From a virus (Duplodnaviria; Heunggongvirae; Uroviricota; Caudoviricetes), in IMG/VR virus record IMGVR_UViG_2563366838_000011: DNA of 14,507 nucleotides; one strand, 5' to 3'. Of the stretch, positions 1-14,370 are shown piece after piece. The notes beneath the pieces are model-generated. The model was not told the origin of the DNA. It was given only the letters and a program-made list of their open reading frames with translations, and ran no database searches. A program made the position numbers and the translations under genes. Within the stretch, counting starts at the first letter, position 1; each line of letters begins with the position of its first letter.

Positions 1-1254
1 ATGCTGGAACAAATGGGCATTGCCGCGAAGCAAGCCTCGTATAAATTAGCGCAACTCTCCAGCCGCGAAAAAAATCGCGTGCTGGAAAAAATCGCCGATG
101 AACTGGAAGCACAAAGCGAAATCATCCTCAACGCTAACGCCCAGGATGTTGCTGACGCGCGAGCCAATGGCCTTAGCGAAGCGATGCTTGACCGTCTGGC
201 ACTGACGCCCGCACGGCTGAAAGGCATTGCCGACGATGTACGTCAGGTGTGCAACCTCGCCGATCCGGTGGGGCAGGTAATCGATGGCGGCGTACTGGAC
301 AGCGGCCTGCGTCTTGAGCGTCGTCGCGTACCGCTGGGGGTTATTGGCGTGATTTATGAAGCGCGCCCGAACGTGACGGTTGATGTCGCTTCGCTGTGCC
401 TGAAAACCGGTAATGCGGTGATCCTGCGCGGTGGCAAAGAAACGTGTCGCACTAACGCTGCAACGGTGGCGGTGATTCAGGACGCCCTGAAATCCTGCGG
501 CTTACCGGCGGGTGCCGTGCAGGCGATTGATAATCCTGACCGTGCGCTGGTCAGTGAAATGCTGCGTATGGATAAATACATCGACATGCTGATCCCGCGT
601 GGTGGCGCTGGTTTGCATAAACTGTGCCGTGAACAGTCGACAATCCCGGTGATCACAGGTGGTATAGGCGTATGCCATATTTACGTTGATGAAAGTGTAG
701 AGATCGCTGAAGCATTAAAAGTGATCGTCAACGCGAAAACTCAGCGTCCGAGCACATGTAATACGGTTGAAACGTTGCTGGTGAATAAAAACATCGCCGA
801 TAGCTTCCTGCCCGCATTAAGCAAACAAATGGCGGAAAGCGGCGTGACATTACACGCAGATGCAGCTGCACTGGCGCAGTTGCAGGCAGGCCCTGCGAAG
901 GTGGTTGCTGTTAAAGCCGAAGAGTATGACGATGAGTTTCTGTCATTAGATTTGAACGTCAAAATCGTCAGCGATCTTGACGATGCCATCGCCCATATTC
1001 GTGAACACGGCACACAACACTCCGATGCGATCCTGACCCGCGATATGCGCAACGCCCAGCGTTTTGTTAACGAAGTGGATTCGTCCGCTGTTTACGTTAA
1101 CGCCTCTACGCGTTTTACCGACGGCGGCCAGTTTGGTCTGGGTGCGGAAGTGGCGGTAAGCACACAAAAACTCCACGCGCGTGGCCCAATGGGGCTGGAA
1201 GCACTGACCACTTACAAGTGGATCGGCATTGGTGATTACACCATTCGTGCGTAA
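1..1254 (+). CDS. proA: gamma-glutamyl phosphate reductase (glutamate-5-semialdehyde dehydrogenase), complete
   Basis: 417-aa ORF from ATG at 1 to TAA at 1252-1254; translation ([16 protein letters not shown]...[12 protein letters not shown]) recognised from memory as enterobacterial ProA; followed by tRNA-Thr as in the E. coli proA-thrW locus. Confidence 0.95.
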
Positions 1255-1368
1255 ATAAAACCGGGTGATGCAAAAGTAGCCATTTGATTCACAAGGCCAT
1301 TGACGCATCGCCCGGTTAGTTTTAACCTTGCCCACCGTGATTCACGTTCGTGAACATGTCCTTTCAGG

Positions 1369-1444
1369 GCCGATATAGCTCAGTTGGTAGAGCAGCGCAT
1401 TCGTAATGCGAAGGTCGTAGGTTCGACTCCTATTATCGGCACCA
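1369..1444 (+). tRNA. thrW: tRNA-Thr (anticodon CGU), 76 nt with encoded CCA
   Basis: GCCGATATAGCTCAGTTGGTAGAGCAGCGCATTCGTAATGCGAAGGTCGTAGGTTCGACTCCTATTATCGGCACCA: acceptor stem GCCGATA/TATCGGC, D-arm with AGCTCAGTTGGTAGAGC, anticodon CGT in loop TTCGTAA, T-arm GGTTCGACTCC, terminal CCA; integrase gene immediately downstream. Confidence 0.92.
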
Positions 1445-1461
1445 TTCAAACATCTCCCCAA

Positions 1462-1545
1462 GTCTACTAAAGTCTTTCAAAACCCCTTATAATCCGCGTA
1501 TTAAAGCCCCGTTCGTCTTTTGACGTCTACTAAAGTCCCTCAAAA
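1462..1545 (+). promoter_or_regulatory. att-proximal imperfect direct repeats GTCTACTAAAGTC(yyy)TCAAAA (1462-1482 and 1525-1545); candidate integrase arm-type or regulatory sites
   Basis: two copies of a 21-bp motif with a perfect 13-bp core GTCTACTAAAGTC, spaced 63 bp apart, between the tRNA 3' end and the integrase start. Confidence 0.35.
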
Positions 1546-1556
1546 TCTACGGTCAG

Positions 1557-1580
1557 ATGGGGGTACTTATGGGGGTATTT
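1557..1580 (+). repeat. tandem direct repeat ATGGGGGTACTT / ATGGGGGTATTT just upstream of the integrase RBS
   Basis: two adjacent 12-bp copies differing at one base; function unknown (possible protein-binding site in the int promoter region). Confidence 0.3.
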
Positions 1581-1609
1581 GCTGTTCGGTTTAGTGGAGG
1601 TACCCCCAA

Positions 1610-2824
1610 GTGAAACTCAATGCCCGTCAAATAGACACAGCCAAGCCAAAAGAGAAGGCTTACAAGCTGGCCGATGGTGGCGGTTTGTATCTCTTGGTAA
1701 AACCTAATGGAGGTAAATACTGGCGACTTAAATATCGTGTAGATGGTAAAGAGAAGCTATTGGCACTAGGTGTGTATCCTGAGGTTACTCTAGCCGATGC
1801 TCGGGCAAAACGTGAAGATGCGAAAAGAGGTATCGCTGGTGGTATCGATCCGATGGAAGCGAAACGAGAGGAAAAGATTGCCCGGGAAACGCAGTTAAAC
1901 AACACCTTCAAAGATATTGCCCTTGAGTGGCACAGCAGCAAATTAAAAAAATGGTCTGCTGGTTATGCTTCAGACATCCTCGAAGCCTTCAACAAAGATG
2001 TGTTCCCTTACATTGGCAAAAAACCAATCGCCGAAATCAAACCACTTGAACTTCTGAATGTGCTGCGGCGCATCGAGGGGCGCGGTGCTACAGAAAAAGC
2101 CAAAAAAGTGAGGCAGCGGTGCGGGGAAGTTTTCCGCTATGCAATAGTCACTGGTCGCGCAGAGTATAACCCTGCACCAGACCTTACTAGCGCGATGCAA
2201 GGCCATGAATCTAATCATTACCCTTTCCTTACAGCTAAAGAATTACCTGATTTTTTCAAGGCATTGTCCAGTTACTCAGGAAGCGCATTGGTTGTTATGG
2301 CGGCTCGTCTACTGATTATCACCGGCTTGCGGACTGGCGAACTACGTGGCGCATTATGGGATGAAATTGATTTCAACAAGGCTATCTGGGAGATACCCGC
2401 TTCACGTATGAAAATGCGGCGGCCTCATATTGTGCCATTGTCTGATCAGGCTCTTTCGCTTATTGGGAAGATTAGAGAAATAACAGGCAATTACCCTCTT
2501 ATGTTTCCCGGGCGCAATGATCCAAGGAAAACAATGAGTGAGGCCAGCATAAACCAAGTGTTTAAGCGCATTGGCTACGCTGGACGTGTAACTGGTCATG
2601 GGTTCCGGCACACTATGAGTACGATTTTGCATGAGCAGGGCTATAACACCGCGTGGATAGAAACGCAGCTCGCTCACGTTGATAAGAACTCAATTCGTGG
2701 CACATACAACCATGCGCAATATCTGGATGGAAGGCGGGAGATGCTTCAATGGTATGCCGACTATATGGATTCTCTCGAGCATGGCGGAAATGTGGTGCAT
2801 ATGGTGTTTGAAAAACACGCATGA
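1610..2824 (+). CDS. int: site-specific tyrosine recombinase, P4-type phage integrase
   Basis: 404-aa ORF with GTG start at 1610 preceded by GTGGAGG (1594-1600); N-terminal arm-binding-type region (AKPKEKAYKLADGGGLYLLVKPNGGKYWRLKYR), C-terminal catalytic region with HGFRHT and RGTYNHAQY motifs; placed directly beside a tRNA gene. Confidence 0.9.
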   Translation: MKLNARQIDTAKPKEKAYKLADGGGLYLLVKPNGGKYWRLKYRVDGKEKLLALGVYPEVTLADARAKREDAKRGIAGGIDPMEAKREEKIARETQLNNTFKDIALEWHSSKLKKWSAGYASDILEAFNKDVFPYIGKKPIAEIKPLELLNVLRRIEGRGATEKAKKVRQRCGEVFRYAIVTGRAEYNPAPDLTSAMQGHESNHYPFLTAKELPDFFKALSSYSGSALVVMAARLLIITGLRTGELRGALWDEIDFNKAIWEIPASRMKMRRPHIVPLSDQALSLIGKIREITGNYPLMFPGRNDPRKTMSEASINQVFKRIGYAGRVTGHGFRHTMSTILHEQGYNTAWIETQLAHVDKNSIRGTYNHAQYLDGRREMLQWYADYMDSLEHGGNVVHMVFEKHA

Positions 2825-2887
2825 AACAACTGGACAAGTATACAGAGGTTTACTAAAGTATAGGGGAGTAGATTGATAAAAACTCAC

Positions 2888-2937
2888 AGAGGATTGCTAT
2901 TTAACAGTTAGCCCTGGAGAAGGGCAATCGCTCTTTT
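2888..2937 (+). terminator. possible intrinsic terminator after int (imperfect stem AGAGGATTGC / GCAATCGCTCT followed by TTTT)
   Basis: about 10-bp imperfect stem with one bulge and a 26-nt loop containing an inner CCCT/AGGG hairpin, followed by TTTTAT; weak by sequence alone. Confidence 0.3.
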
Positions 2938-2967
2938 ATAAACGAAGGTGTATTGAGCCTTCTACGT

Positions 2968-3032
2968 CGCTGACAAAGCGGAATGTTCTTTAACAGGCTT
3001 TGGCGCTGACAAAGCGCAATTGTTCTTTAAAA
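2968..3032 (+). promoter_or_regulatory. 28-bp imperfect direct repeats CGCTGACAAAGCG-(G)AAT(T)-GTTCTTTAA (2968-2995 and 3004-3032); candidate operator sites in the int-alpA spacer
   Basis: two copies 36 bp apart, each with an internal CGCT/AGCG dyad; lie in the 428-bp non-coding spacer upstream of alpA. Confidence 0.4.
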
Positions 3033-3131
3033 CTACTGGATGTCACGCCTAATAGCGTGATCCTGCCGAAATGCAGGGTAGCTCTACCCTTGTGGAGCGA
3101 ACAAACCAAAACAATCTGACTATCTTTTATA

Positions 3132-3166
3132 AAAGACCGCAATATGTTTTTCATATTGTGGTCTTT
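3132..3166 (+). promoter_or_regulatory. 15-bp inverted repeat AAAGACCGCAATATG-TTTTT-CATATTGTGGTCTTT (one mismatch); candidate operator or RNA hairpin upstream of alpA
   Basis: near-perfect dyad with a 5-nt T spacer, about 90 bp upstream of the alpA start; not followed by a T-run, so not called a terminator. Confidence 0.35.
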
Positions 3167-3252
3167 GGCGTATTCGACATTTGACGCAAATAAAACTCTC
3201 GCCATTCGTTGCAGGAGGGGGTTATTGCGTCATTAGTACAGGATATTAATAA

Positions 3253-3456
3253 ATGGCTAATTACAATTCATTAATTCGTCTCTCTGAAGTTCAAAGGCGA
3301 ACTGGTTATAGCAAAGCATGGATTTATCGTCTTATTAGTCAGGGGAGGTTCCCTAAACAGGTAAAAATTGGAAGTCGGGCAATTGCTTTTGTTGAGTCTG
3401 AAATAGATGAATGGATTGAGAAGTGTATATTAGAATCTAGAGACGAGGTGGCCTGA
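3253..3456 (+). CDS. alpA: AlpA-family phage transcriptional regulator (small HTH DNA-binding protein)
   Basis: 67-aa ORF with AGGA 9 nt upstream; sequence LIRLSEVQRRTGYSKAWIYRLISQGRFPKQVKIGSRAIAFVESEIDEWI matches the AlpA/prophage CP4-57 regulator pattern; sits second after int as in P4-like islands and PICIs. Confidence 0.85.
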   Translation: MANYNSLIRLSEVQRRTGYSKAWIYRLISQGRFPKQVKIGSRAIAFVESEIDEWIEKCILESRDEVA

Positions 3457-3887
3457 TGGAAAAGAAAAACCGCCCATTACAGGCGGCTAATTCAGATATT
3501 CGTGTATCTGATGTTACGCCCCTTACAAAATCCCTTCAAGCACCAAAGCGCACACCGAAAAAGCATCGTGCCAGAGTCTATATGCTGCGTACTGGTATAG
3601 AGGGATGGACAGAAAATGACATTCTTCGCTACTGCCGTCTGTCTTCTGGTCGTAACTATGCAACAGAGTTAGAACGCCAGCTTGGAATCACTCTGGAGCG
3701 TATCGACGAAAAGAATCCTGATGGTATCGGAACACACCTTCGCTACCGTTTCTCCTGCCGTGGTGATGTTCTGAAAGTGATCACTCATATTAACCATCTT
3801 GCGAACATAAATGATCACAACGGACTTTCTCAGCAGGAAATTGCCGACATTCTGAAACTCTACCCGGACGCGTTTAACGCCGCCTAA
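3456..3887 (+). CDS. hypothetical protein, basic N-terminus, possible DNA-binding protein
   Basis: 143-aa ORF translationally coupled to alpA (TGATG overlap); Lys/Arg-rich N-terminal segment (PKRTPKKHRAR); no family recognised. Confidence 0.6.
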   Translation: MEKKNRPLQAANSDIRVSDVTPLTKSLQAPKRTPKKHRARVYMLRTGIEGWTENDILRYCRLSSGRNYATELERQLGITLERIDEKNPDGIGTHLRYRFSCRGDVLKVITHINHLANINDHNGLSQQEIADILKLYPDAFNAA

Positions 3888-3899
3888 CGGAGACTGAAA

Positions 3900-4733
3900 A
3901 TGAACATCGAAAAAAGCAGATTAATTTCTGAGGCCGCCCCTCATCTGAACGCCTCTCTGGGCACAATTAACGGTAATGAATTTGCCGCAATTGTCCCGGT
4001 TATTCCAGGTCACATCGGTGGGCGTGAAACCAATATTGTTAGCGCAAAAGCGTTACACAAAGCGTTGGGCGTGGGAAAAGACTTCTCTACATGGATCACT
4101 GATCGCATCTCTGAATATGACTTCACCATTGGGCACGATTACTCAGTCCATAAAACAATTTCCCCAAATTTGGGGAAAAGCCCGAATGGCACGGCTTACA
4201 GCAAGATTAAGCAGTCTGGCAGACCCGGCAAAGACTATCTGTTAAGTGTCGGAATGGCGAAAGAGCTGGCAATGATCGAACGCAATGATCAGGGTCGCGC
4301 TATCCGTCGTTATTTCATCCAGTGCGAGGAAGAATTACAGCGTAGCGTGCCTGAAATCGCCGCCCGCTATCGTCGCCAGCTAAAAGCCCGTATCAGTGCC
4401 GCAAACAACTTTAAGCCAATGTGCGATGCGCTGAATATGGCCCGTGCCGAGCAGGGGAAAACGACGCAGCAACACCACTACACAAACGAGAGCAATATGA
4501 TTTCTCGTATCGTTCTTGGAGGGCTAACTGCTAAGCAGTGGGCGCGGATAAATGGCTATTCTGGCGAACCTCGCGACCATATGAACGCAGAACAGCTTGA
4601 GCACCTCTCATATCTCGAAAGCACCAATATCACGTTAATTGATATGGGCATGGAATATGAGCAGCGCAAAGGAGAACTCACCCGCCTGTCGCAACGCTGG
4701 CTCGCCAAGCGTCTGGAGGCGGTCCATGTTTAA
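3900..4733 (+). CDS. phage antirepressor-like protein (AntA/Rha-type N-terminal domain)
   Basis: 277-aa ORF with GGAG 7 nt upstream; N-terminal motif SAKALHKALGVGKDFSTWITDRISEYDFTIGHDY resembles the conserved core of phage antirepressor (AntA/Rha) domains; assignment from motif memory only. Confidence 0.55.
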   Translation: MNIEKSRLISEAAPHLNASLGTINGNEFAAIVPVIPGHIGGRETNIVSAKALHKALGVGKDFSTWITDRISEYDFTIGHDYSVHKTISPNLGKSPNGTAYSKIKQSGRPGKDYLLSVGMAKELAMIERNDQGRAIRRYFIQCEEELQRSVPEIAARYRRQLKARISAANNFKPMCDALNMARAEQGKTTQQHHYTNESNMISRIVLGGLTAKQWARINGYSGEPRDHMNAEQLEHLSYLESTNITLIDMGMEYEQRKGELTRLSQRWLAKRLEAVHV

Positions 4734-4908
4734 GCCGACAGGAACACCACAACCTCAAAAACGCTACAAAGATGCCCACGGAGCACTCGTTACTGTCGAA
4801 AGCGTGTCTCACAACCGAGTGACGTTTTATCGCGACGGGTATCAATCGCCATGCGTACAACCGCTGGCGCGCTTCATGAAGGAGTTCGCGGAGGTTAACA
4901 AATGCTAA
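4726..4908 (+). CDS. small phage protein, DUF4222-like
   Basis: 60-aa ORF from ATG at 4726 with GGAGG 6 nt upstream, overlapping the upstream stop; pattern RYKDAHGALVTVESVSHNRVTFYRDGYQSPCVQPLARFMKEFAEV resembles small prophage proteins of the DUF4222 type (from memory). Confidence 0.5.
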   Translation: MFKPTGTPQPQKRYKDAHGALVTVESVSHNRVTFYRDGYQSPCVQPLARFMKEFAEVNKC

Positions 4909-5930
4909 CCGTCCAGAAGAAGATATTTTCACTGACTGCTATGTCGCAAAAATCCAGCAATATGACAGCAAAGTCTGGCATTAATACAGCAGATACAAGC
5001 AAAGCTTATCATTTTATGGTGGTAGGAGCGGATGCCTTAACTATGTCAGAAATTACGGTCGATGGTGTTAGCGTTGAGAAGGTCAGCGGCTGCGCCAGAG
5101 AATTTCTGGTCGTAGATGACCTGTTCTGCTCGCGTAGTGACTCCACAAAAATCTTCGTCCGCACGCGCGACGTTAACGAAATGAGCGCGATGTACTGTGC
5201 CTCTGGTTCTTCCAATAGTGAGTTTTCGGAGTCCATAAAAAAGAGCTTGCCGTTATGCGGCAACACGGTTTATGGTTATAAGGCACCTCATAAAACGGGT
5301 GCCGGGATTAGGACCCCGCAGGCAATCGAGGCGATACATGACGCGCCAGCGTCTTTTTTTGTATCGGCGCACACGCACACCTTATCAATGGTGGGCTGTA
5401 TGGGGCTGACTTCGGTCAGGCTGGTTTCCTTGATTGCCAGTAGTCCTAACCCTGTACAGTCCACCGCCAGCGAGCTTAGGACCTCCGGCGGTGGCTATAA
5501 ACCATCAATCAAGGAGGCTGCCACATGCTGGCTACTACCCCTACCCAAAAACCGCAATTTATCTGGATTATCGCCGCAGTTCGCCGCGATTGCCCGACAA
5601 TTACCGCCAAAATTCATCATATTGCTGCCGAGTCTGAACGCGATGCTCGCCGTTCTCTGGTGCGCGATCACATCTGCTTTTTTGCTGGTCGTATCCGCAT
5701 GGAGGTGGCACATGATTAAAACCTACGATGTGCATATGGATCCCCTCGAACGCACAAGCCAGATCATCACACTGACAGAAGTGATTAACGACATTCTGGT
5801 GAGCAACTCTCCCTCACGAGACGAAAGACTGAAGGCGTTACTCGCGATATTGGATCTCGCCGTTCGTGACGTTCATTTCCTGCTGGAAGGTGGACAAATG
5901 CCATGCAAAACGGGGGCAACCAATGAATAA
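4902..5930 (+). CDS. uncertain long ORF (342 codons); N-terminal about 125 codons protein-like, remainder of doubtful coding character
   Basis: ATG at 4902 overlaps the upstream stop (ATGCTAA) with GGAGG 9 nt upstream; the frame stays open for 1029 nt, but 5280-5520 translates to low-complexity S/T/P/L-rich sequence and contains hairpins and a terminator-like structure; the last 72 codons (from ATG 5712) look protein-like again. Confidence 0.3.
5340..5360 (+). terminator. terminator-like hairpin GACGC-GCCA-GCGTC followed by TTTTTTT, inside the long ORF
   Basis: 5-bp GC-rich stem, 4-nt loop, 7-T run at 5354-5360; a UUCG-tetraloop hairpin (CTGAC-TTCG-GTCAG, 5405-5418) and an 8-bp dyad (CCACCGCC...GGCGGTGG, 5461-5494) lie just downstream. 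Confidence 0.3.
5525..5719 (+). CDS. hypothetical small protein, alternative frame nested in the long ORF
   Basis: 64-aa ORF with strong SD (AAGGAGG) 7 nt upstream of ATG 5525; translation ([22 protein letters not shown]...RIRMEVAHD) is more protein-like than the overlapping frame of the long ORF. Confidence 0.35.
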   Translation: MLATTPTQKPQFIWIIAAVRRDCPTITAKIHHIAAESERDARRSLVRDHICFFAGRIRMEVAHD

Positions 5931-6117
5931 CTCAATTAATACCCCTCGCCTTACGTCCGCACTTCAATTAATCGAGCAAGCAGCGGCTGTCCTGGTTGCT
6001 GTCAGTCTTTCGGCTGAAGAAATGGACGCTGCTGATGTCGTGGATGCGATTAAAGCGTGCTCATCTTTGGTTAACGATGCCCGTGCCGAGCTGGTAATTC
6101 TTGGGGGTGAAAAATGA
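5923..6117 (+). CDS. hypothetical small protein (64 aa)
   Basis: ATG at 5923 overlapping the upstream stop (ATGAATAA); in frame with the track ORF 5866-6117; first gene of a coupled small-gene operon. Confidence 0.5.
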   Translation: MNNSINTPRLTSALQLIEQAAAVLVAVSLSAEEMDAADVVDAIKACSSLVNDARAELVILGGEK

Positions 6118-6377
6118 ATATCAACTTAATTTATCGTCATCCGTGTGAGCTGGAAATTGAATCATTGCTGGGGCGCGAAGAGCCATATCCAGACACATTC
6201 ACTCCCGCAGATTGCGCGACTGAACGGCTTACCAGAGCGCGCACAGGTCTGGTTCATGTGATGAATGAGATTGTTCCCTCGGTGGGAGGGGAACAGGCGA
6301 CAGTAATCAATAGCTGGCTACAAAAAGTTACCTCCCTGATAGATATCGGTTTAATCGATGTGGAGAGTGCGAAATGA
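6114..6377 (+). CDS. hypothetical protein (87 aa)
   Basis: ATGA start/stop overlap with the upstream gene, GGGGTG upstream; no family recognised. Confidence 0.55.
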   Translation: MNINLIYRHPCELEIESLLGREEPYPDTFTPADCATERLTRARTGLVHVMNEIVPSVGGEQATVINSWLQKVTSLIDIGLIDVESAK

Positions 6378-6595
6378 CCAACATCCAGCTCATTGAAGCG
6401 CAATGTCGCATCGAACAGGTTCAGACTGTTTTAGGGTTCTGGCTTGAAGGGGCCAGCCCCAGCAACAGAGACAAGTTAATGATTGGCGCGGTTATGTCAC
6501 TGCTCAATGGCGTACCAGAAGCTATTCAGGAAGCGGACGAATTGTTGGGCAAATATGAGTTACAGAATCATTCAGGCGAGGCGAAACATGAATAA
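6374..6595 (+). CDS. hypothetical protein (73 aa)
   Basis: ATGA overlap with the upstream gene, GGAGAG upstream; no family recognised. Confidence 0.55.
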   Translation: MTNIQLIEAQCRIEQVQTVLGFWLEGASPSNRDKLMIGAVMSLLNGVPEAIQEADELLGKYELQNHSGEAKHE

Positions 6596-7190
6596 TTTCT
6601 TAACTTTCCATGCAGAAGCAACGCCTGACGGCGTAAACATCATGTACCGCAGCAACGATGGCATGACAGAACGCGTTGAGACCGTCTCATATATTGATGC
6701 CGTAAATCGTCTGGATGCCGGGGATTATGACGATAAACCAGATGAAGGCATGTTTATACATCTCGCTATTGCCAGTGGCGGCAACCAGGGATATTTCGAT
6801 TACACATCACAGCATCACGTGATTATGTGGCGCTGGCTGATAGCAACAGCATTCATCAATGAAATGAGAAAGGAAAACGGCACTGTCAGCATCATTGATG
6901 ATACTGGCAATCCTTCCGAAGTGGCTGTTTATTCCAACGGCATCGTCGCCATGCCGCTGTATCCAGTAGCAGAGCGCCTCGCTATGGCAAACAACATTGA
7001 GGGCGCGATGATAGAACGTTTTGGCATCGAGTCTGGCACAGAACGCGCCATCATTTTCTACAGAGCCATGATGGATGTGGAACAAGGAGCACTGACTCCA
7101 TTTGGTCGTGAAACGCTTGCTGAACTTCACAACAGCTTTATAGCTGAACTGAATGAAAACGGCATGCCAGCGGAACCAGTGACGCACTGA
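6588..7190 (+). CDS. hypothetical protein (200 aa)
   Basis: ATG at 6588 overlapping the upstream stop by 8 nt, GAGG upstream; in frame with the track ORF 6483-7190, whose upstream extension would overlap the previous gene extensively; no family recognised. Confidence 0.6.
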   Translation: MNNFLTFHAEATPDGVNIMYRSNDGMTERVETVSYIDAVNRLDAGDYDDKPDEGMFIHLAIASGGNQGYFDYTSQHHVIMWRWLIATAFINEMRKENGTVSIIDDTGNPSEVAVYSNGIVAMPLYPVAERLAMANNIEGAMIERFGIESGTERAIIFYRAMMDVEQGALTPFGRETLAELHNSFIAELNENGMPAEPVTH

Positions 7191-7200
7191 GGATGGAGCC

Positions 7201-7542
7201 ATGATTACTAAAAATTTCCGACTGAATGCGCTGGCAAATAAGTATGCGTCAGCACTGTATAACCACATTACCTCCACCAGCGGCGGGGACTATTTCATGA
7301 TTGATGCGGACGGAGAGGCCGTCCGTGTGGAAATCGTCAATGGAGTAAAAGGCGTTCGCAGCCTGATCGATAGTTACGCACTGGCAGCCATGAAAGTGTT
7401 CTACCCGCAGTGGGAAACCGTGGGGATCGAGCTTCTTGATCGTTGCGTCACTAAGGACAGATTGACTGACGTCGGGCGTGAGATATGGCAAAGCATGGTT
7501 AATGACATGGGCGCAACTGTAGCGGGAGGTTCTCATGCGTGA
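7201..7542 (+). CDS. hypothetical protein (113 aa)
   Basis: ATG at 7201 with GAGGATGGAG upstream, 10 nt after the upstream stop; no family recognised. Confidence 0.6.
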   Translation: MITKNFRLNALANKYASALYNHITSTSGGDYFMIDADGEAVRVEIVNGVKGVRSLIDSYALAAMKVFYPQWETVGIELLDRCVTKDRLTDVGREIWQSMVNDMGATVAGGSHA

Positions 7543-7906
7543 AAATGTAGAAATGGCGCTTAGCTCCGCAATCGGAGAGCAGGTGGCAAAGATTGCTGGT
7601 GCTGTGTGGATTCATAACCTTCATTCTACTGGTGAAGAGAAAATGGCAATTCAGACGCCAGAGGGACGCACCATTACTACATCTCTGAAGCCGTCAGATG
7701 TTTGTGATCTGATTTGCGCATTCATGTACCCAGCAATGAGGACTGTCCACGGCGATAAGTGGAAACTTGCGACAACCGCTGAATTTGATATGTGGCTAAA
7801 CAATGATGGCATGCTGACTGATTACGGAATAACCAAGTGGCAGATGCTAGTTAGCCATATCGCAAACGCTATAGACCACGTGGGGTACGGTGATGCGAAA
7901 CATTGA
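7535..7906 (+). CDS. hypothetical protein (123 aa)
   Basis: ATG at 7535 with GGGAGG upstream, overlaps the upstream stop by 8 nt and the primase start; no family recognised. Confidence 0.6.
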   Translation: MRENVEMALSSAIGEQVAKIAGAVWIHNLHSTGEEKMAIQTPEGRTITTSLKPSDVCDLICAFMYPAMRTVHGDKWKLATTAEFDMWLNNDGMLTDYGITKWQMLVSHIANAIDHVGYGDAKH

Positions 7907-10649
7907 TCTTATCCGTCAGGTTATCAGTGCGTCTGAAAACAACTGGCCTCATGTGCTGGGCTGCCTGAACATAAATGTCCCTGACTCTCCGCGCCGTCAT
8001 GCTCCCTGCCCTGCATGTGGGGGCAAAGATCGATTCCGGTTCGATGACAACGGGCGCGGTAGCTTCATCTGTAATCAGTGCGGCGCTGGTGATGGGCTGG
8101 ATTTAATTAAACGCGTAAATAACTGCGACACAACAGAGGCGGCGCTTCTTGCCGCTGATGTTCTGGGTATTGATTACCGGACAACGGAAACACCAGAAGC
8201 CACCAGCCAGAAACGGGAACAACTGGAAACCGAGCGCCAGCGACGCGAACAGGAGCGCCTGAAAAGGGCAGAGAAGGACGAACAACAAAGACGGGATACG
8301 TTTTCCCGTCAGTTTGATGACATGCGCAGAAAGGCTGTAAACGGCAAATCTGATTATCTGGTTGCGAAAGGGGTAGGTGATTTTACATTCCCCGTGTTGC
8401 CCGATGGATCTCTGTTGCTGGCGCTGGTGGATAAATCCGGCGCAGTAACAGCAGCACAGACTATTACCTCACATGGTGAAAAAAGACTCCTGACAGGTTC
8501 AGCAAAGCGAGGGGCATATCACGCCATAAACGCACCAGAAACAACACAGAGCATCTTAATCGCAGAAGGGCTGGCAACGGCATTATCTGCCCATTTAATG
8601 CGTCCAGAGGCGCTGACAGTGGCGGCGATTGATGCCGGGAACCTGTTATATGTCGCCCAGGTACTGCGGGATAAATTTCCTTCAGCACAAATCATCATTG
8701 CTGCGGATAACGACCACAGCGAAGGAAGACAAAACACGGGGAGAATAGCAGCAGAAAAAGCAGCTTTATCTGTTTCTGGATGGGTGGCATTACCCCCGAC
8801 AGATCACAAAGCAGACTGGAATGATTACCACCAAAAACACGGCATTAAATGCGCCACAGAAGCGTTCAATAAGTCAATGTACCAACCACAGGGTAATGGC
8901 GTGAAACAGGAGCCACAGACCATTGAGGGAAGCGATTTTAAGGTTATGGATACCGATCCACTGAAACCAAGAATAGAAAGCCGCGAGGATGGTATTTATT
9001 GGGTATCTCCGAGAGCTGACAGCCAGAGTGGAGAAATCATCAATAACGAAAGCTGGTTATGTTCTCCGTTAAGCGTTATCGGTACTGGCAGAGACGATAA
9101 AGACCAGTATCTCATTCTTCGCTGGCTGTCGTTTGGTTCTGAAACGCCGACAACCGCTGCCATTCCACTGGCTGATATTGGTGAACGTGAAGGATGGCGC
9201 ACACTTAAAGCTGGTGGGGTAAATGTCACGACCAAAAGCAGCCTCAGAGCAATACTGGCAGACTGGCTACAACGCAGTGGCTCTCGTGAATTGTGGCGTG
9301 TTGCTCATGCCACTGGCTGGCAATGCGGAGCGTACATCATGCCTGATGGGGAAATCATCGGAACACCTGAAAATCCTGTGCTGTTCAGCGGGAGAAGCTC
9401 AGCCGCAGCCGGATATACCGTCTCAGGGAGCGCGAAAAGCTGGCGTGATAACGTGGCGCGTCTGGCCTTTGGTAACTATTCAATGATGACCGGGATCGGC
9501 GCAGCACTGGCAGCGCCATTGATTGGGCTGGTGGGCGCTGACGGGTTCGGCATTCATTTCTATGAGCAGTCGAGCGCAGGTAAGACCACCACGGCAAACG
9601 TGGCGAGCAGCTTATACGGCAACCCTGATTTACTGCGGCTGACGTGGTACGGAACCGCGCTGGGGCTGGCAAATGAGGCCGCCGCCCACAATGACGGACT
9701 AATGCCGCTTGATGAAGTTGGTCAGGGCGCTGATCCTGTCAGCGTTTCACAGTCTGCCTATGCGTTATTTAACGGTGTAGGGAAACTGCAAGGCGCTAAA
9801 GATGGTGGAAACCGGGATCTAAAACGCTGGCGTACAGTGGCAATCAGCACCGGAGAAATGGATTTAGAAACATTTATCGCTACTTCCGGGCGAAAAACCA
9901 AAGCCGGGCAACTGGTGCGACTGCTGAATATTCCGTTGAGTAAAGCAGTACGCTTTCACGATTACCAGAACGGAAAACAGCACGCAGACGCACTGAAAGA
10001 CGCTTACCAGCATCACCACGGCGCGTCCGGGCGTGAGTGGATTAAATGGCTGGCAGACCACCAGCAACAGGCTATTAAAACCGTTCGTGACTGCGAAAGC
10101 AGATGGAGAAGCCTGATCCCATCCGATTATGGTGAGCAGGTTCACCGTGTAGCCGCGCGATTTGCCATTCTGGAGGCCGCATTGTTGTTAGGCGAGGTTG
10201 TAACAGGCTGGGATGCTCAGACATGCCGTGATGCGATACAGCACAGCTATAACGCATGGTTGCGCGAGTTCGGCACAGGTAACAAAGAGCATCAGCAGAT
10301 TATTGAACAAACGGAGGCATTTCTTAATGCCTATGGGCTTAGCCGTTTTGCACCATTTCCATACAGCCCGGCAGATTTGCCCATCAAAGATTTAGCCGGA
10401 TACCGTCAGCGTGGAGAACATGACGAAAGCCCAATGATTTTCTACACATTCCCGGCCACATTTGAAAAGGAGATCGCATGTGGTTTCAACGCAAAACAGT
10501 TTGCTGAAGTGTTGAAAAAAGCCGGGATGCTAACCCCACCAAACAGCGGTCGTGGATACCAAAGAAAATCACCACGTATTCAGGGACGACAAATAAACGT
10601 TTATGTACTCAATTACCAGCCAGGAGATTATAACTCATCTGAAGAATGA
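7893..10649 (+). CDS. primase-helicase replication protein (P4 alpha-like / PICI Pri-Rep): zinc-ribbon, TOPRIM and P-loop NTPase domains
   Basis: 918-919-aa ORF (ATG 7893, or GTG 7890 as in the track); Cys motif CPACGG...CNQCG; TOPRIM-like segment ILIAEGLATALS...IIIAADNDH; Walker A motif SSAGKTT near residue 555; iteron origin immediately downstream. Confidence 0.88.
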   Translation: MRNIDLIRQVISASENNWPHVLGCLNINVPDSPRRHAPCPACGGKDRFRFDDNGRGSFICNQCGAGDGLDLIKRVNNCDTTEAALLAADVLGIDYRTTETPEATSQKREQLETERQRREQERLKRAEKDEQQRRDTFSRQFDDMRRKAVNGKSDYLVAKGVGDFTFPVLPDGSLLLALVDKSGAVTAAQTITSHGEKRLLTGSAKRGAYHAINAPETTQSILIAEGLATALSAHLMRPEALTVAAIDAGNLLYVAQVLRDKFPSAQIIIAADNDHSEGRQNTGRIAAEKAALSVSGWVALPPTDHKADWNDYHQKHGIKCATEAFNKSMYQPQGNGVKQEPQTIEGSDFKVMDTDPLKPRIESREDGIYWVSPRADSQSGEIINNESWLCSPLSVIGTGRDDKDQYLILRWLSFGSETPTTAAIPLADIGEREGWRTLKAGGVNVTTKSSLRAILADWLQRSGSRELWRVAHATGWQCGAYIMPDGEIIGTPENPVLFSGRSSAAAGYTVSGSAKSWRDNVARLAFGNYSMMTGIGAALAAPLIGLVGADGFGIHFYEQSSAGKTTTANVASSLYGNPDLLRLTWYGTALGLANEAAAHNDGLMPLDEVGQGADPVSVSQSAYALFNGVGKLQGAKDGGNRDLKRWRTVAISTGEMDLETFIATSGRKTKAGQLVRLLNIPLSKAVRFHDYQNGKQHADALKDAYQHHHGASGREWIKWLADHQQQAIKTVRDCESRWRSLIPSDYGEQVHRVAARFAILEAALLLGEVVTGWDAQTCRDAIQHSYNAWLREFGTGNKEHQQIIEQTEAFLNAYGLSRFAPFPYSPADLPIKDLAGYRQRGEHDESPMIFYTFPATFEKEIACGFNAKQFAEVLKKAGMLTPPNSGRGYQRKSPRIQGRQINVYVLNYQPGDYNSSEE

Positions 10650-10674
10650 GCTTCTTCATGTGCGTAGAAAAGGT

Positions 10675-10785
10675 GTTGGTTCAGTTGGTTCAGTTGGTTC
10701 AATTTGTAAAGAGTATTGTTTTATAAGGATTTTATTCTTTTTATTGAACCAACACTGAACCAACAACACGGTATTTTGAACCAAC
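10675..10785 (+). repeat. iteron-type replication origin: three tandem GTTGGTTCA (10675-10701), 43-bp AT-rich spacer, three inverted copies TGAACCAAC (10745-10753, 10756-10764, 10777-10785)
   Basis: read directly from sequence; sits just 3' of the primase-helicase gene, the usual ori position in P4-like satellites and PICIs; the track ORFs overlapping it (10656-10895 minus, 10716-10967 plus) are probably spurious. Confidence 0.7.
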
Positions 10786-10836
10786 ACAATGTGACTGAAT
10801 TGATGCGCACAACACCTGGCTGGCATCAGAGAGTGT

Positions 10837-10911
10837 TTTACGAGACTTTCGTAAAATCCTGTGTACAAGGGCGTGACGTTTTTGAAAGTGAGCACTACGA
10901 AATTTTCGTAG
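10837..10911 (+). promoter_or_regulatory. two related dyads TTTACGA-N5-TCGTAAA (10837-10855) and CTACGAA-ATT-TTCGTAG (10895-10911); candidate operator pair
   Basis: 7-bp perfect inverted arms sharing an ACGA/TCGT core, about 58 bp apart, in the non-coding region between the ori and the downstream operon. Confidence 0.3.
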
Positions 10912-11105
10912 TTCAGAAAACAGCCTCTGAGAAGTTGTTATGCCTGTTCAGCAAACCATCCGCATAGCTGATCGCGAATCAAATTACCAATGGAGCCAGA
11001 AGCAAGGGCAGAACTGAAAAGCGCCTGCCGTGAAGAGTAATGCGACACCATAAATATAGTTTTTAGAGTCCATAAAAAACCTGTCAAAACCTGACACACA
11101 GAACG

Positions 11106-11138
11106 ATGCCACCAGCTACTGAGCGGTGGCATTTTTTT
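11106..11138 (+). terminator. rho-independent terminator (8-bp stem ATGCCACC / GGTGGCAT, 11-nt loop, then TTTTTTT)
   Basis: perfect 8-bp GC-rich stem at 11106-11113 / 11125-11132 followed by 7 T at 11132-11138; oriented for + strand transcripts. Confidence 0.55.
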
Positions 11139-11233
11139 GTGCTATTTGTTTCATATTTTGCAATTACGATGATGAATATTGCGATTTGTGAAACTATAAT
11201 AACTGTTGTTTTATACAGTTCTAAGGGGGCGTT

Positions 11234-11395
11234 ATGGCTATTTCAGTAAAGCCGGTATTGATAAGTGAGAAGCAAATGGAAGCGATAAAGAAAATTCAGG
11301 AAGAGCAGCGTAAAAAATCAGGAATTGGAGTAGCGCCAACTCTGCATGAAATTGCACGAGGGTTAATAGATAAGGCGCTGGCAGGCTGTATGTGA
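11234..11395 (+). CDS. small protein (53 aa), possible ribbon-helix-helix-type DNA-binding regulator
   Basis: not in the ORF track (below its length cutoff); ATG at 11234 with AAGGGGG upstream and a TATAAT box at 11195-11200; translation MAISVKPVLISEKQMEAIKKIQEEQRKKSGIGVAPTLHEIARGLIDKALAGCM has a strand-helix-helix layout compatible with an RHH fold (inference). Confidence 0.45.
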   Translation: MAISVKPVLISEKQMEAIKKIQEEQRKKSGIGVAPTLHEIARGLIDKALAGCM

Positions 11396-11411
11396 AAATG
11401 GATGGCATCGC

Positions 11412-11873
11412 ATGGAACTAAAATTTATTGATAACCCTGTGCGATTACAGGCCTTTCTTAACGAGCCAGGCAATACCGAAAATATTGTTGAGCCGGGGCA
11501 CACGTACTACATCAAGCCTGATGCGGTATATCTCGGCATCTACGAAGGATTAGTGCTGGCTGGCGTTCATGAAGTGCGTAACTTCTGGCATAGCGTTGTT
11601 GAATGCCATGCGGTGTACGACCCCGGATTCCGTGGTGAATATGCACTGCAAGGACATCGATTATTCTGCAAATGGCTTCTCGAAAACTCACCATTCCTTA
11701 ACAGCATCACTATGGTTCCTGACACCACGAAATACGGACGGGCAATTATCCGTTTGCTTGGCGCTACCCGTGTTGGTCACCTTGATGATGCTTATATCAG
11801 ATGTGGTAAACCCGTCGGCGTAACGCTTTATCAGTTAACTCGGCAACAATATAAGGAATTCAGCGAATGTTAA
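11412..11873 (+). CDS. hypothetical phage protein (153 aa), first gene of the virion-protein-like operon
   Basis: ATG at 11412, 17 nt after the small ORF; its stop overlaps the next start (ATGTTAA); no family recognised; occupies the position of P22 gp14 in a 14-7-20-16-like gene order (positional inference only). Confidence 0.6.
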   Translation: MELKFIDNPVRLQAFLNEPGNTENIVEPGHTYYIKPDAVYLGIYEGLVLAGVHEVRNFWHSVVECHAVYDPGFRGEYALQGHRLFCKWLLENSPFLNSITMVPDTTKYGRAIIRLLGATRVGHLDDAYIRCGKPVGVTLYQLTRQQYKEFSEC

Positions 11874-12544
11874 TTACCCATATAGCTCATAAACATCTCA
11901 ATCGTGCCGTATACGAAAAAGGCGGTGATGGTGGTGCCTCTAAAGCTCAGGCGAAGGCCCAGCAGCAGGCAATTGATTTGCAGCGCGAGCAGTGGAATAC
12001 GGTGATGAATAATCTCAAGCCGTATGCAGAAGTCGGATTGCCTGCTTTACAACAACTACAAGGACTGATGACTCTGGAAGGGCAGAATAAAGCCGCGAAT
12101 GATTTCTTTGGTTCTGGTTTATATAAAACACAGGCAGATCAGGCCCGTTATCAGAACCTTGTCTCAGCAGAAGCTACCGGGGGGCTTGGCTCAACAGCTA
12201 CCAGTAACCAGTTATCTTCCATTGCGCCCATGCTTTATAACAATTGGCTTAGTGGGCAAATGCAAAATTATGGAAACCTGCTAAATGTCGGGATGAATGC
12301 GGCATCAGGGCAGGCAACGGCAGGGCAAAACTACGCCAATAATACCGGACAACTCTTGCAGGGGCTTGGCGCTATTCGTGCAGGTCAGGCGCAGCAGCCA
12401 TCCAGTCTTGCGCGTGGTATTGGTGGGGCAGCATCAGGCGCTTTAGCGGGTGCGCAACTTGGTTCCGTTGTTCCTGGAATAGGAACTGCGGCCGGCGCTA
12501 TTGGTGGTGGGCTTATTGGTCTTGTTGGGGGGCTTGGATTCTAA
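11867..12544 (+). CDS. putative phage DNA-ejection/internal virion protein with C-terminal glycine-zipper segment
   Basis: 225-aa ORF with AAGGA upstream; Gln/Asn/Ala-rich middle; C-terminus GIGGAASGALAGAQLGSVVPGIGTAAGAIGGGLIGLVGGLGF made of GxxxG/GxxxA repeats typical of membrane-inserting glycine zippers; size and position resemble P22 gp7-type ejection proteins (inference). Confidence 0.6.
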   Translation: MLITHIAHKHLNRAVYEKGGDGGASKAQAKAQQQAIDLQREQWNTVMNNLKPYAEVGLPALQQLQGLMTLEGQNKAANDFFGSGLYKTQADQARYQNLVSAEATGGLGSTATSNQLSSIAPMLYNNWLSGQMQNYGNLLNVGMNAASGQATAGQNYANNTGQLLQGLGAIRAGQAQQPSSLARGIGGAASGALAGAQLGSVVPGIGTAAGAIGGGLIGLVGGLGF

Positions 12545-13863
12545 TGGCGACATGGCAACTTGGCGGGCTGCCTAGCATGGCACCGCAAAATGATAATGCT
12601 CCTCGTTCTTCCGTTCCTCAGCCTGTGCAGTATCAGCAGCAGCCAAACGTAGGTTTAATGGCGCTACAGGGGCTAAGAGGCGTTGCTGAGATTAATCAGC
12701 AGGCGCAAATTTCCCAGCAGCTAAAAGAATATCAGGCACGGTTGGGTAGTGCGGTAGCTAATAATGATCGTGTTGGCGTGCATAAGTTAATGGCCCAGTA
12801 TCCCCAGTTTATGGCTGATTCTCAAAAACAGATGGGATTCATTGATGCTGAGCAAAATCGGCAGACCGCTGACGCTGCCATGAATCTGCGTCTTGCGTCA
12901 CAAACTGGAGATCCACTGACCATGCAGAAGGCCATTCAGCAGGCAAATCCAGTATTACAGCGATTTGGTCTTCCTGCTGAAGAGGTTTATCAGTCTTGGC
13001 AGAATGACCCACAGGAATTCAACAGAATCACTGACCTCATCCACCTCCATGCTGATCCAAATAGTTACTTTAGTGTTCAAGAGAAGCAGCAAGGGCAGAG
13101 TATTGCACAGCAGAACGCAGATACATCTGCATATAATGCTCAGGTTAATGCGGAGCAGGGTAATCGGCGGCTCGATATGGAGCAGTTCAAAGTCCTATCC
13201 GATAACCAACTACGCACGAGAGAAATGGTTCTGAAAGCACGACTTGGACGTGCTCAAAATGACATCGAGAGAGACAAGCTCAATGCTGAACTGAGCAAGG
13301 TACAGCAGGCGAAAGTGGAGAAGATGAACGATAAAATTAATACTGTTGCAGGTAATATCGACTCCTTGAACTCTGCGCTTGAAGTGGGTCATGAACTGGC
13401 GGGAATTGTAGGGAAACATCCTTCGGCCGTTACCCGTTCGCAGAACTATAACCCCCTGACGCTGGGGTTTGGATTCCTCCCTGATGTAGCAGAAGACACA
13501 CGAAGCCTACGCGCCAAAGCTGATGAATACAACCTAAAGGTTATTCTGCCTAGCCTAAAAGGTACTTTTGGCTCTAACCCAACCGAAGGGGAAAGGGCTG
13601 CCCTTATGCAATCTCAAAATGGCATTAAGTCAGCAACCAGCAATGAGGCATTTTTGCGAGAGTTGAATAAAGCGCAGGACGTAATTATTCGAATGCAGAA
13701 ACGACAGATTGCCGGGCTCGGTATTCCTGTAACCAAATCTAAGGACGAAGAAACTGATACCAAAATGCTGTTGCAGGATCCTTCACTGGTTAAGGATTAT
13801 GTGACCGCACATGGCTATCTGCCGGAAAGTTACTATCAGGCAAAACTTAAGGGATGGCAATGA
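12544..13863 (+). CDS. putative phage ejection/internal virion protein, Gln-rich coiled-coil protein (439 aa)
   Basis: start overlaps the upstream stop (TAATG); very Gln/Ala/Asn-rich with heptad-like charged stretches (LRTREMVLKARLGRAQNDIERDKLNAELSKVQQAKVEKMNDKIN); no family recognised; positional analog of P22 gp20 or T7 gp15 (inference). Confidence 0.6.
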   Translation: MATWQLGGLPSMAPQNDNAPRSSVPQPVQYQQQPNVGLMALQGLRGVAEINQQAQISQQLKEYQARLGSAVANNDRVGVHKLMAQYPQFMADSQKQMGFIDAEQNRQTADAAMNLRLASQTGDPLTMQKAIQQANPVLQRFGLPAEEVYQSWQNDPQEFNRITDLIHLHADPNSYFSVQEKQQGQSIAQQNADTSAYNAQVNAEQGNRRLDMEQFKVLSDNQLRTREMVLKARLGRAQNDIERDKLNAELSKVQQAKVEKMNDKINTVAGNIDSLNSALEVGHELAGIVGKHPSAVTRSQNYNPLTLGFGFLPDVAEDTRSLRAKADEYNLKVILPSLKGTFGSNPTEGERAALMQSQNGIKSATSNEAFLRELNKAQDVIIRMQKRQIAGLGIPVTKSKDEETDTKMLLQDPSLVKDYVTAHGYLPESYYQAKLKGWQ

Positions 13864-14370
13864 TGGCACAACTGACAGAAAAACAGAAAGCCTATTCCCG
13901 TCATCTCGATGAAAAATATGGTTTCCCATCAGGGACGATGGAAACATTAGTTGGCAATGAATCTAGTGGTAACGGAAGTGCCGAGTCACCGAAAGGAGCT
14001 AGAGGATTTGCTCAACTGATGCCCTCAGTAATGAGTGATGCTGGTTATCGTGGAACAGATCCGCGCTCACTGCCATTTGAAAAGCAAATGGATATCGCAG
14101 CAAACCATCTCAATAAAGGAATGAAGCGATTTGGTGATATAGGTATGGCATTGGCTGGGTATAATTCTGGCTATGCTCGTATTAATGCCGTAAGAAACGG
14201 TAAATCTACACTGCCAGATGAAACGGCTAATTACGTAAGTAAATTTGCAGATGCCGGAATAATCCCTGATGACAGTGAAATCTTGCAGTTTGCACAAACC
14301 AGTCAACATCGCAATCTTCAGCAGCCTGACTACTCAGAGCTTGATAAAGAAATCTCTCAGGTGGGAGATA
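13860..14370 (+). CDS. lytic transglycosylase (SLT) domain protein, N-terminal part of a phage internal virion/ejection-type protein, interrupted by an IS insertion
   Basis: ATG at 13860 (AAGGG 6 nt upstream, overlaps the upstream stop); SLT family-1 motifs in order: ES in VGNESSGN, GFAQLMP, AGYNSGY; the frame runs without a stop into the IS terminus at 14371, so the native 3' part is displaced. Confidence 0.6.

Follow-up and report, generated by a model that had tools for sequence, protein, structure and literature searches.

A core gene of EcCIMP1-type phage satellites encodes an AntA-domain protein with a possibly DdrC-like C-terminal half

Phage satellites, antirepressors and DdrC

The phage-inducible island EcCIMP1 is a 20-kb element of E. 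coli MP1 that is inserted at a tRNA-Thr gene between proA and yagU and is mobilised by the temperate podovirus Kapi1 (Pick, Stadel & Raivio, ISME J 2025; PMC11773190). Its AlpA protein was shown to be the master regulator, a positive autoregulator that is required for both excision and transfer, and a reporter of the alpA promoter responded only in a Kapi1 lysogen exposed to mitomycin C; DNA damage by itself did not switch it on (PMC11773190). Deletion of the whole island left both the Kapi1 titre after mitomycin C and Kapi1 CI-lux unchanged (PMC11773190). In addition, EcCIMP1 raises the superinfection immunity of Kapi1 lysogens, and no known defence system was detected within it; a Kapi1-like prophage was present in only 2 of the 21 EcCIMP1 strains (PMC11773190). 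The most conserved parts of EcCIMP1-like elements are an antirepressor gene, an 'Ash' ORF and the primase, the 'antirepressor' label being taken from annotation (PMC11773190). A 2026 survey of Enterobacter reported BRO, AntA/AntB or Rha 'putative antirepressors' beside Icd-like genes in PICIs and cf-PICIs (PMC13612085), and antirepressor-type genes in satellites are therefore already known at the level of annotation.

Among the proteins that act on phage repression, Epsilon of the satellite P4 is a protein of 95 aa that derepresses the helper P2. Ant1 and Ant2 of phage P1 form a complex with the C1 repressor, and P1 Ant1 is a biochemically proven antirepressor; P1 Ant2 and P22 Ant likewise count as proven. 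The Ant protein of the Stx phage Phi24B is of the type that has a P22-type C-terminal domain, and its knockout lowers late-promoter output to ~30-55% after induction (PMC3064807). Our literature search found no experimentally tested AntA-domain antirepressor, no tested AntA-domain protein of the architecture described below, and no DNA-binding experiment on an AntA-domain protein.

[quoted passage not shown] The winged helix is acidic and the main DNA contact lies elsewhere. The dimer holds two DNA duplexes, for which it chiefly uses a basic linker of the C-terminal domain. It senses both nicks and ends, and it can compact nicked DNA and turn linear DNA into circles (PMC9303277, PMC11347143); it also bridges nicks (PMC11347143). 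DdrC was reported as having no homologs, and phages are unmentioned in these reports (PMC9303277, PMC11347143). No paper connecting DdrC with AntA proteins was found in the literature search.

The AntA-like gene in its satellite context

We analysed a stretch of 14,507 nucleotides from a tailed-phage record (IMG/VR IMGVR_UViG_2563366838_000011), below called the window. Its DNA is ~98% identical to EcCIMP1 over positions 1-14371, and the MP1 locus has the identical gene order. The following features were located:

1-1254: proA, at the start of the window
1369-1444: tRNA-Thr(CGT), beside the integrase, left end of the island
1610..2824, + strand: tyrosine integrase, 43% identical to P4 Int
3253..3456, + strand: alpA (AlpA/Vis family; Pfam PF05930, E=7e-20), first gene of the putative operon
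3456..3887, + strand: orf143, of no family, conserved upstream partner of the AntA-like gene
3900..4733, + strand: AntA-like CDS, 277 aa, the subject gene; 272/277 residues are those of the EcCIMP1 'antirepressor' WP_001019374.1
4726..4908, + strand: DUF4222 gene (Pfam PF13973, E=6e-25), end of a tight four-gene block
5283..5359, + strand: isrK-type RNA (Rfam RF01394, 63 bits), with a terminator-like hairpin at 5340-5353
5384..5471, + strand: C4/CI-type antisense immunity RNA (Rfam RF01695, 80.2 bits), with DNA homology to the P4 cI region
5525..5719, + strand: Icd-like ORF of 64 aa with an AAGGAGG ribosome-binding site, first ORF past the C4 RNA
between the Icd-like ORF and the primase-helicase: several small ORFs
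7890..10649, + strand: primase-helicase (zinc ribbon, Toprim, DUF927), the satellite replication gene, 34% identical to the N-terminal part of P4 alpha
11412-13863: P22-type DUF2824 and ejection-protein genes

The AntA-like ORF starts with ATG, with GGAG 7 nt upstream of it. Comparison with orthologs of 60-99% identity revealed purifying selection (dN/dS 0.09-0.18), the C-terminal domain being the most constrained portion of the protein. This is a genuine coding gene under selection. Its product has five substitutions relative to the EcCIMP1 'antA/AntB antirepressor family protein' (98% identity), and the alpA product has a single accession in the window and in EcCIMP1 (WP_000035054.1). The gene likewise follows int, alpA and orf143 in EcCIMP1, at the tRNA-Thr site beside proA. 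Thus, a published satellite carries an annotated gene of which the window gene is an almost identical allele. The island variant in the window departs from EcCIMP1 in a short segment at 5362-5419.

The first four genes of the block downstream of the integrase are closely packed. The alpA stop codon overlaps the orf143 start at 3456, a gap of 12 nt separates orf143 from the AntA-like gene, and the stop codon of the latter overlaps the DUF4222 start by 8 nt. A scan of the + strand found no terminator-like site within the alpA-DUF4222 block or before 5340. Because these genes abut or overlap, and because no terminator-like site precedes that of isrK on the + strand, a single alpA-orf143-antA-DUF4222 operon can fairly be inferred, and co-transcription after alpA, as put forward in the original prediction, is plausible from the sequence. 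The orf143 product gave no match in Pfam, PHROG, NCBIfam or PDB-profile searches. Its AlphaFold2 model, built from the single sequence, was poor (pLDDT 45), and a winged-helix-like topology is possible with low confidence; the gene co-occurs with the AntA-like gene in loci as far as Gilliamella. A LexA box, as in SOS-controlled antirepressors such as Tum, was not detected by our scan upstream of either alpA or the AntA-like gene. The sole perfect LexA box (11203-11218) precedes another operon.

We examined the distribution of the gene at several levels. The block at 3200-5000, from alpA to the DUF4222 gene, is present in 667 of the 5426 complete E. coli genomes, and EcCIMP1-type islands are therefore common. 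A search of 1.84 billion representative proteins returned 7450 relatives, mostly via the AntA domain, of which several dozen are full-length two-domain relatives with 32-56% identity; 34 of these full-length proteins make up the alignment that we refer to as A1. A scan of one genome per species with a 7-sequence query located ~50 loci with full-length relatives. Relatives extend across Enterobacterales, Orbaceae and Aeromonas. In most of these loci an integrase on the same strand lies ~3 kb upstream of the gene, a primase follows the gene, and the order is int-alpA-orf143-antA. The arrangement is kept in Escherichia, Enterobacter, Klebsiella, Raoultella, Cedecea and Pantoea, as well as in Serratia, Pectobacterium, Xenorhabdus, Photorhabdus, Gilliamella and Aeromonas, and the integrases of these loci are diverse (22% to 97% identity). 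According to Rfam scans of 22 related loci, a tRNA, an RNA motif between int and alpA, isrK and C4 follow each other in that order, the latter two right after the AntA-like gene; in Aeromonas, isrK begins less than 100 nt past its stop codon. The exceptions to this synteny are Edwardsiella prophages of the EPP-1 type and the Pasteurellaceae loci, and the EPP-1 type also provides the only full-length phage homolog (64.5% identity). Altogether, the AntA-like gene is a core gene of EcCIMP1-type satellites and one of the most conserved. The presence and conservation of the gene in EcCIMP1-like elements were already known (PMC11773190); its status as a widespread satellite core gene is added here.

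The island resembles P4 in several respects. Each is an integrative satellite that encodes a P4-type integrase, a Vis/AlpA protein and an alpha-like primase and has an immunity module with a CI/C4 RNA, and isrK is structurally homologous to the seqA leader element of P4 (PMC4825925). The Icd-like ORF is 37% identical to residues 68-130 of the P4 'cI orf' (E=5e-7), in agreement with the MP1 annotation, and the order of C4 RNA and Icd-like ORF is that of P1 immI (c4-icd-ant) and of the P4 cI region. However, protein and RNA homology between P4 and the window is limited to the integrase, the N-terminal part of the primase and the CI/C4 RNA region; P4 Sid, Delta, Psu, ORF151 and ORF106 are absent from the window ORFs. 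The 277-aa protein has no sequence similarity to the much shorter Epsilon, and tblastn of Epsilon against the whole window gave no match at E<=10, so neither the AntA-like gene nor any other window ORF qualified as its homolog. The arrangement differs as well. In P4 (vis-[cI RNA]-epsilon-orf151-orf106-alpha) the epsilon gene is downstream of the cI RNA, whereas in the window (alpA-orf143-antA-DUF4222-[isrK, C4]-icd-...-primase) the AntA-like gene is upstream of the RNA.

A similar difference separates the window from P1. The 'antirepressor' name is common to P1 and P22 Ant and the window protein, and P1 ant is tied to a c4 RNA-icd cassette of the type also found in the window. In P1, however, ant is downstream of c4-icd and controlled by C4, whereas the AntA-like gene ends at 4733 and has the C4 RNA (5384-5471) and the Icd-like ORF (5525-5719) downstream of it, which is not the placement of P1 immunity I. 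Because it lies upstream of the isrK/C4 module, the gene is outside the C4 RNA-controlled unit. A scan of inverted repeats for upstream C4-RNA target sites that would link the gene to the immunity RNA returned only short, chance-level matches.

Domain architecture of the AntA-like protein

The AlphaFold2 model of the 277-aa protein, computed with alignment A1, is confident (mean pLDDT 86.5). It has a disordered N-terminal tail (aa 1-24), followed by these parts:

4038..4286, + strand: AntA domain, aa 47-129; the folded domain covers ~aa 31-129 when the beta-hairpin before it is counted in
4155..4229, + strand: basic, disordered loop inside the AntA domain, aa 86-110, separating its two wing strands
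4287..4730, + strand: helical C-terminal half, aa 130-277, formed by two long helices and a helical bundle; matches to phrog_2657 and PADLOC PDC-S22

The original prediction had assigned the N-terminal segment to AntA/Rha-type antirepressor domains. The AntA part of this assignment is borne out by Pfam: AntA/AntB (PF08346) matches aa 47-129 with 77.7 bits (cutoff 27; E=1e-21), the model being covered in full (1-68) with an internal insertion, and the peptide SAKALHKALGVGKDFSTWITDRISEYDFTIGHDY (residues 48-81) falls within this match. The PHROG 'anti-repressor Ant' families phrog_5817 (E=1e-37) and phrog_377 (E=4e-26) also match. The Rha part does not hold, since Rha (PF09669), like Bro-N (PF02498), KilA-N (PF04383) and ANT/KilAC (PF03374), gave no Pfam match to the protein at E<=0.01. 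The likeness to KilA-N and Bro-N is structural only. In the model, the AntA domain consists of a beta-hairpin, a helix-turn-helix and two wing strands, with the loop inserted in the wing; this predicted winged-helix-like fold is similar to those of the DdrC N-terminal domain, Dachshund and KilA-N/Bro-N. Among viral predicted structures, the nearest are KilA-N, Bro-N, T5orf172 and 'antirepressor'-named proteins, and other relatives have tandem AntA domains or an AntA domain joined to KilA-N or Bro-N.

The loop at aa 86-110 stands apart from the rest of the domain. It has pLDDT below 50 in the AlphaFold2 model and a net charge of +4, and its length ranges from 0 to ~45 residues among the relatives in alignment A1. 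Within the loop pN is about equal to pS, at 0.5-0.8, in contrast to pN of 0.1-0.2 elsewhere; the loop evolves almost neutrally.

We compared the protein with named antirepressors. Stx-phage AntB has 47% identity over aa 31-150, and Ant of TP-J34 aligns with the family in its N-terminal domain only (hhalign 99.7%). These Ant/AntB proteins of Stx phages and of the S. thermophilus TP-J34/Sfi21 group have a homologous AntA domain and an RxYFIxCE helix, and TP-J34 ant has a comparable placement, directly after a small HTH regulator in an early operon. They are putative antirepressors, and their C-terminal parts differ and are not DdrC-like. P1 Ant1 contains ANT/KilAC (PF03374, E=1e-30) only and no AntA domain; it was considered as a relative and rejected (BLASTP E=0.03, hhalign 0.6%). 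Gifsy-1 AnrP, an 'anti-repressor' beside isrK, is an ORF6N-domain protein and was rejected as well (hhalign 0.1%).

The C-terminal half, which the original prediction had left unassigned, indeed has no Pfam family, and the NCBIfam search assigned no family to either the whole protein or the C-terminal domain. It can now be assigned as similar to the C-terminal domain of DdrC. [quoted passage not shown] A search of 177,635 PDB sequences with the family profile gave DdrC as the top match (E=0.14), over the C-terminal domain. Comparison with DdrC relatives by hhalign yielded 82.8% (E=9.4e-6), over aa 157-247 only and with a shallow DdrC alignment of 6 partial sequences. The motifs W..R, Y, VLG and RD.L are common to the C-terminal domain and DdrC. 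On the other side, identity to D. radiodurans DdrC (PDB 7qvb, 7udi, 8u0g) is ~15%, a PDB search with the single protein sequence gave no match, and neither did the NCBIfam equivalog model repair_DdrC (NF033622). DdrC and our model orient their domains differently, which keeps the TM-scores between them low (0.35-0.44). The DNA-contact residues of DdrC are not kept in place, since the columns of K158, R164, R167 and K170 hold L209, A215, N218 and G222; K212 and R216 are neighbouring basic residues, and Lys is the consensus residue of the family in the R164 column. The AntA-like protein also differs from DdrC in being encoded by an early gene of a mobile element and in having a Pfam-recognisable AntA domain with a hypervariable insertion. 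Taken together, the evidence for homology between the C-terminal half and the linker plus four-helix bundle of DdrC from Deinococcus is suggestive, not conclusive. It provides the first structural handle on the second half of the protein.

The same half matches the PADLOC model PDC-S22, with aa 165-266 collinear with model positions 156-259 of 281 (E=9.7e-11). PDC-S22 is an unvalidated single-gene phage defence candidate, and its match to the AntA-like protein is confined to the C-terminal domain. The protein as a whole is basic (pI 9.3), and 11 columns of the family alignment are at least 70% Lys/Arg. Together with the predicted fold and the KilA-N/Bro-N relatives, this charge points to a DNA-binding protein.

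Possible functions

Given that the hallmarks of antirepressors are missing and that the second half resembles DdrC, it is more likely that the AntA-like protein binds DNA than that it switches on a helper prophage. The best-supported mechanism, to which we give about even odds, is DNA binding by a core early satellite protein downstream of helper induction. The protein, composed of an AntA winged-helix-like domain of the KilA-N/Bro-N/DdrC-NTD kind and a DdrC-like linker and four-helix bundle, would be produced from the AlpA-controlled operon only once the helper is in its lytic cycle. It would bind DNA directly, probably as a dimer by analogy with DdrC. The target may be satellite or helper DNA; acting on it by regulating transcription or by handling DNA, the protein would advance mobilisation, and the inactivation of the helper repressor would have another trigger. 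This mechanism draws on two sources. Our own analysis showed the domains, the similarity of fold, the conserved gene order, the purifying selection and the missing ANT/KilAC and Epsilon features; published work on the 98%-identical element showed when the operon is expressed and that the island has no effect on helper induction. On this basis we infer that the protein binds DNA and dimerises, and which DNA it targets.

The 'antirepressor' name, if passed on by annotation pipelines, would suggest instead a P4-like induction of the helper, and the original prediction had proposed a helper derepressor modelled on Epsilon. We found no positive support for such a derepressor, and the lack of an Epsilon homolog and of PF03374, the expression after helper induction and the predicted DNA-binding fold speak against it; the sequence and the published island data do not support the name, and for this architecture it has no experimental basis. 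A genuine antirepressor would bind the CI-type repressor of the Kapi1-like helper, or of other resident prophages, and inactivate it non-covalently. We regard this as improbable, and we are similarly doubtful of an Epsilon-like role in which the protein would reinforce helper induction once begun or induce a helper upon arrival of the satellite in a lysogen. The family name and the PHROG labels speak for a role of this kind, some phage Ant proteins fuse AntA to a P22/P1-type ANT domain, and the effect of the Phi24B Ant knockout on late-promoter output (PMC3064807) fits it. The hypervariable loop could be a fast-evolving surface of protein-protein specificity, and a broad inducer would be useful to a satellite because so few EcCIMP1 strains hold a Kapi1-like prophage. 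However, the architecture differs from those of P1 Ant1, TP-J34 Ant and AnrP, there is no LexA box upstream, and the gene is outside the C4 RNA-controlled unit that governs P1 ant. Moreover, expression follows helper induction, and the island deletion changed neither Kapi1 titre nor CI-lux (PMC11773190), although SOS induction in those experiments could have masked an antirepressor effect.

The DdrC likeness also permits a more specific role, in which a dimer grips two breaks or ends and thus protects and circularises the linear satellite DNA after injection. The satellite of ~20 kb is transduced by a P22-like headful-packaging phage, whose ejection-protein genes it also holds, and incoming DNA must therefore be circularised; DdrC itself circularises linear DNA and bridges nicks (PMC11347143), and the suggested C-terminal homology comes with a matching overall architecture. 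Against this role, which we judge quite unlikely, the lesion-sensing and DNA-contact residues of DdrC are not conserved, the operon is induced in the donor after helper induction and not obviously in the recipient, and homologs occur at non-early positions in ordinary prophages such as Edwardsiella phage EPP-1. A variant in which the protein stabilises replication or packaging intermediates seems to us just as unlikely. The PDC-S22 match, for its part, suggests an effector of anti-phage defence or superinfection immunity, which alone or with orf143 would be behind the immunity that EcCIMP1 adds in Kapi1 lysogens; no known defence system was found in the island. Yet PDC systems are unvalidated candidates derived from genomic association, satellites cluster with defence islands, which can produce such associations, and the match is limited to the C-terminal domain. 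The P22-type ejection proteins and other island genes are equally good candidates. Since the AntA-like gene occupies a fixed core position in the operon rather than being variable cargo, and since the PDC models are association-based, the case for a defence role is weak and we consider it very unlikely. DNA binding downstream of helper induction remains the preferred reading.

A broader proposal is that AntA 'antirepressors' with a DdrC-like C-terminal domain are not antirepressors at all and are mobile-element relatives of DdrC, dimers that grasp ends or nicks and protect, bridge or circularise satellite DNA or trap phage DNA. We hold this to be rather unlikely as a whole. If true, it would give DdrC, described as having no homologs, a large family of mobile-element relatives, and DdrC, so far known from Deinococcus only, would be a domesticated phage or satellite protein; the trapping of incoming phage DNA could then account for the superinfection immunity of the island. 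Besides the core-gene status, the present analysis adds to the published description the DdrC-like half of the protein and the finding on its 'antirepressor' name.

E. coli DinD was considered separately as a relative and was not supported, since neither the AntA-like family profile nor the DdrC profile reached 1% when aligned by hhalign with a single DinD sequence. A fragment of DdrC has a weak match to the NCBIfam DinD model (E=0.096), and DinD carries a Bro-N domain.

Late module and candidate control sites

P22-type virion proteins have homologs in the late part of the satellite, at 11412-13863 and further on past that interval (25526-33445 in L001, a locus from another genome), and no capsid or terminase genes were found in the satellite alongside them. 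Such cargo is unusual for phage-inducible islands (PICIs), and it is consistent with Kapi1, a P22-like phage, as the helper. The features in and before this module are as follows:

10677-10700 and 10748-10790, just 3' of the primase stop, GGTTCAGTT present as three direct repeats and, after these, repeats of the GAACCAACAC type that run the opposite way
11193-11222, LexA-box-like perfect palindrome AACTGTTGTTTTATACAGTT
11234, ORF53, first gene of the operon for DUF2824 and P22-type ejection proteins
virion-type cargo, in order: DUF2824/gp14-like, gp7-like and gp20-like ejection proteins, followed by a lytic transglycosylase

The palindrome is the sole site in the window that matches CTGT-N8-ACAG with zero mismatches. 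It lies directly after a TATAAT and approximately 15 nt 5' of the ORF53 ribosome-binding site, and this placement of a perfect LexA-box-like site suggests, from sequence, that the late module of the satellite may be under SOS control. The repeats downstream of the primase gene are candidate replication-origin iterons.

Early region and the RNA cassette

Many related islands carry the int-alpA RNA motif (Rfam RF02996) between int and alpA (e.g. 4197-4262 in L005 and 4558-4626 in L041, both loci from other genomes). This motif was not found in the window, even at E<=1, and the int-alpA interval (2824-3253) contains two direct repeats in its place. The early features considered here are:

2967-2992 and 3003-3030, two direct repeats of ~26 nt, CGCTGACAAAGCG(G/C)AAT(G/T)TTCTTTAA
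3456-3887, orf143, 143 aa, no recognised family
4902-5930, ORF of 342 aa, 'ash family protein'
5283-5719, cassette of isrK (P4 seqA-like), C4/CI RNA and an Icd-like ORF

The cassette mixes features of the P1 immI region (c4-icd-ant) with those of the P4 cI region. The Icd-like ORF has 37% identity to aa 68-130 of the P4 'cI ORF'; whereas ant follows c4-icd in P1 immI, small ORFs and the primase gene occupy that place in the window.

The ash ORF covers both RNAs of the cassette, as well as the Icd-like ORF in a different frame, and its Pfam Phage_ASH match (aa 124-219) coincides with the RNA region. Its counterpart in strain MP1 is annotated as a pseudogene, and homology between the window and MP1 is interrupted at 5362-5419, within the ORF. 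The ash ORF is probably not a genuine protein gene; the idea of 'ash' as a helper derepressor is repeated in a 2026 paper.

The orf143 and AntA-like genes co-occur across genera, as far as Gilliamella (~50% identity). Ten orf143 orthologs share 38 invariant residues, and searches of Pfam, PHROGs, NCBIfam, PADLOC and PDB gave no match for the product, the secondary structure of which hints at a winged helix.

A possible relative, and a tandem arrangement, of the AntA-like gene

The SOS-inducible DinD protein of E. coli K-12 (dinD, L088:2261-3085) contains a Bro-N domain. A fragment of DdrC, a Deinococcus DNA-binding repair protein, weakly matches the C-terminal part of DinD (NCBIfam, E=0.096). 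The alignment of DinD with the AntA-like family is collinear but non-significant; it hints that DinD might share the same two-domain superfamily, a placement that the present data do not support. In Rodentibacter caecimuris (L050:6001-7500), the AntA-like gene occurs twice in tandem (38% and 34% identity) with an integrase downstream on the opposite strand, a gene arrangement unlike that of the enterobacterial islands.
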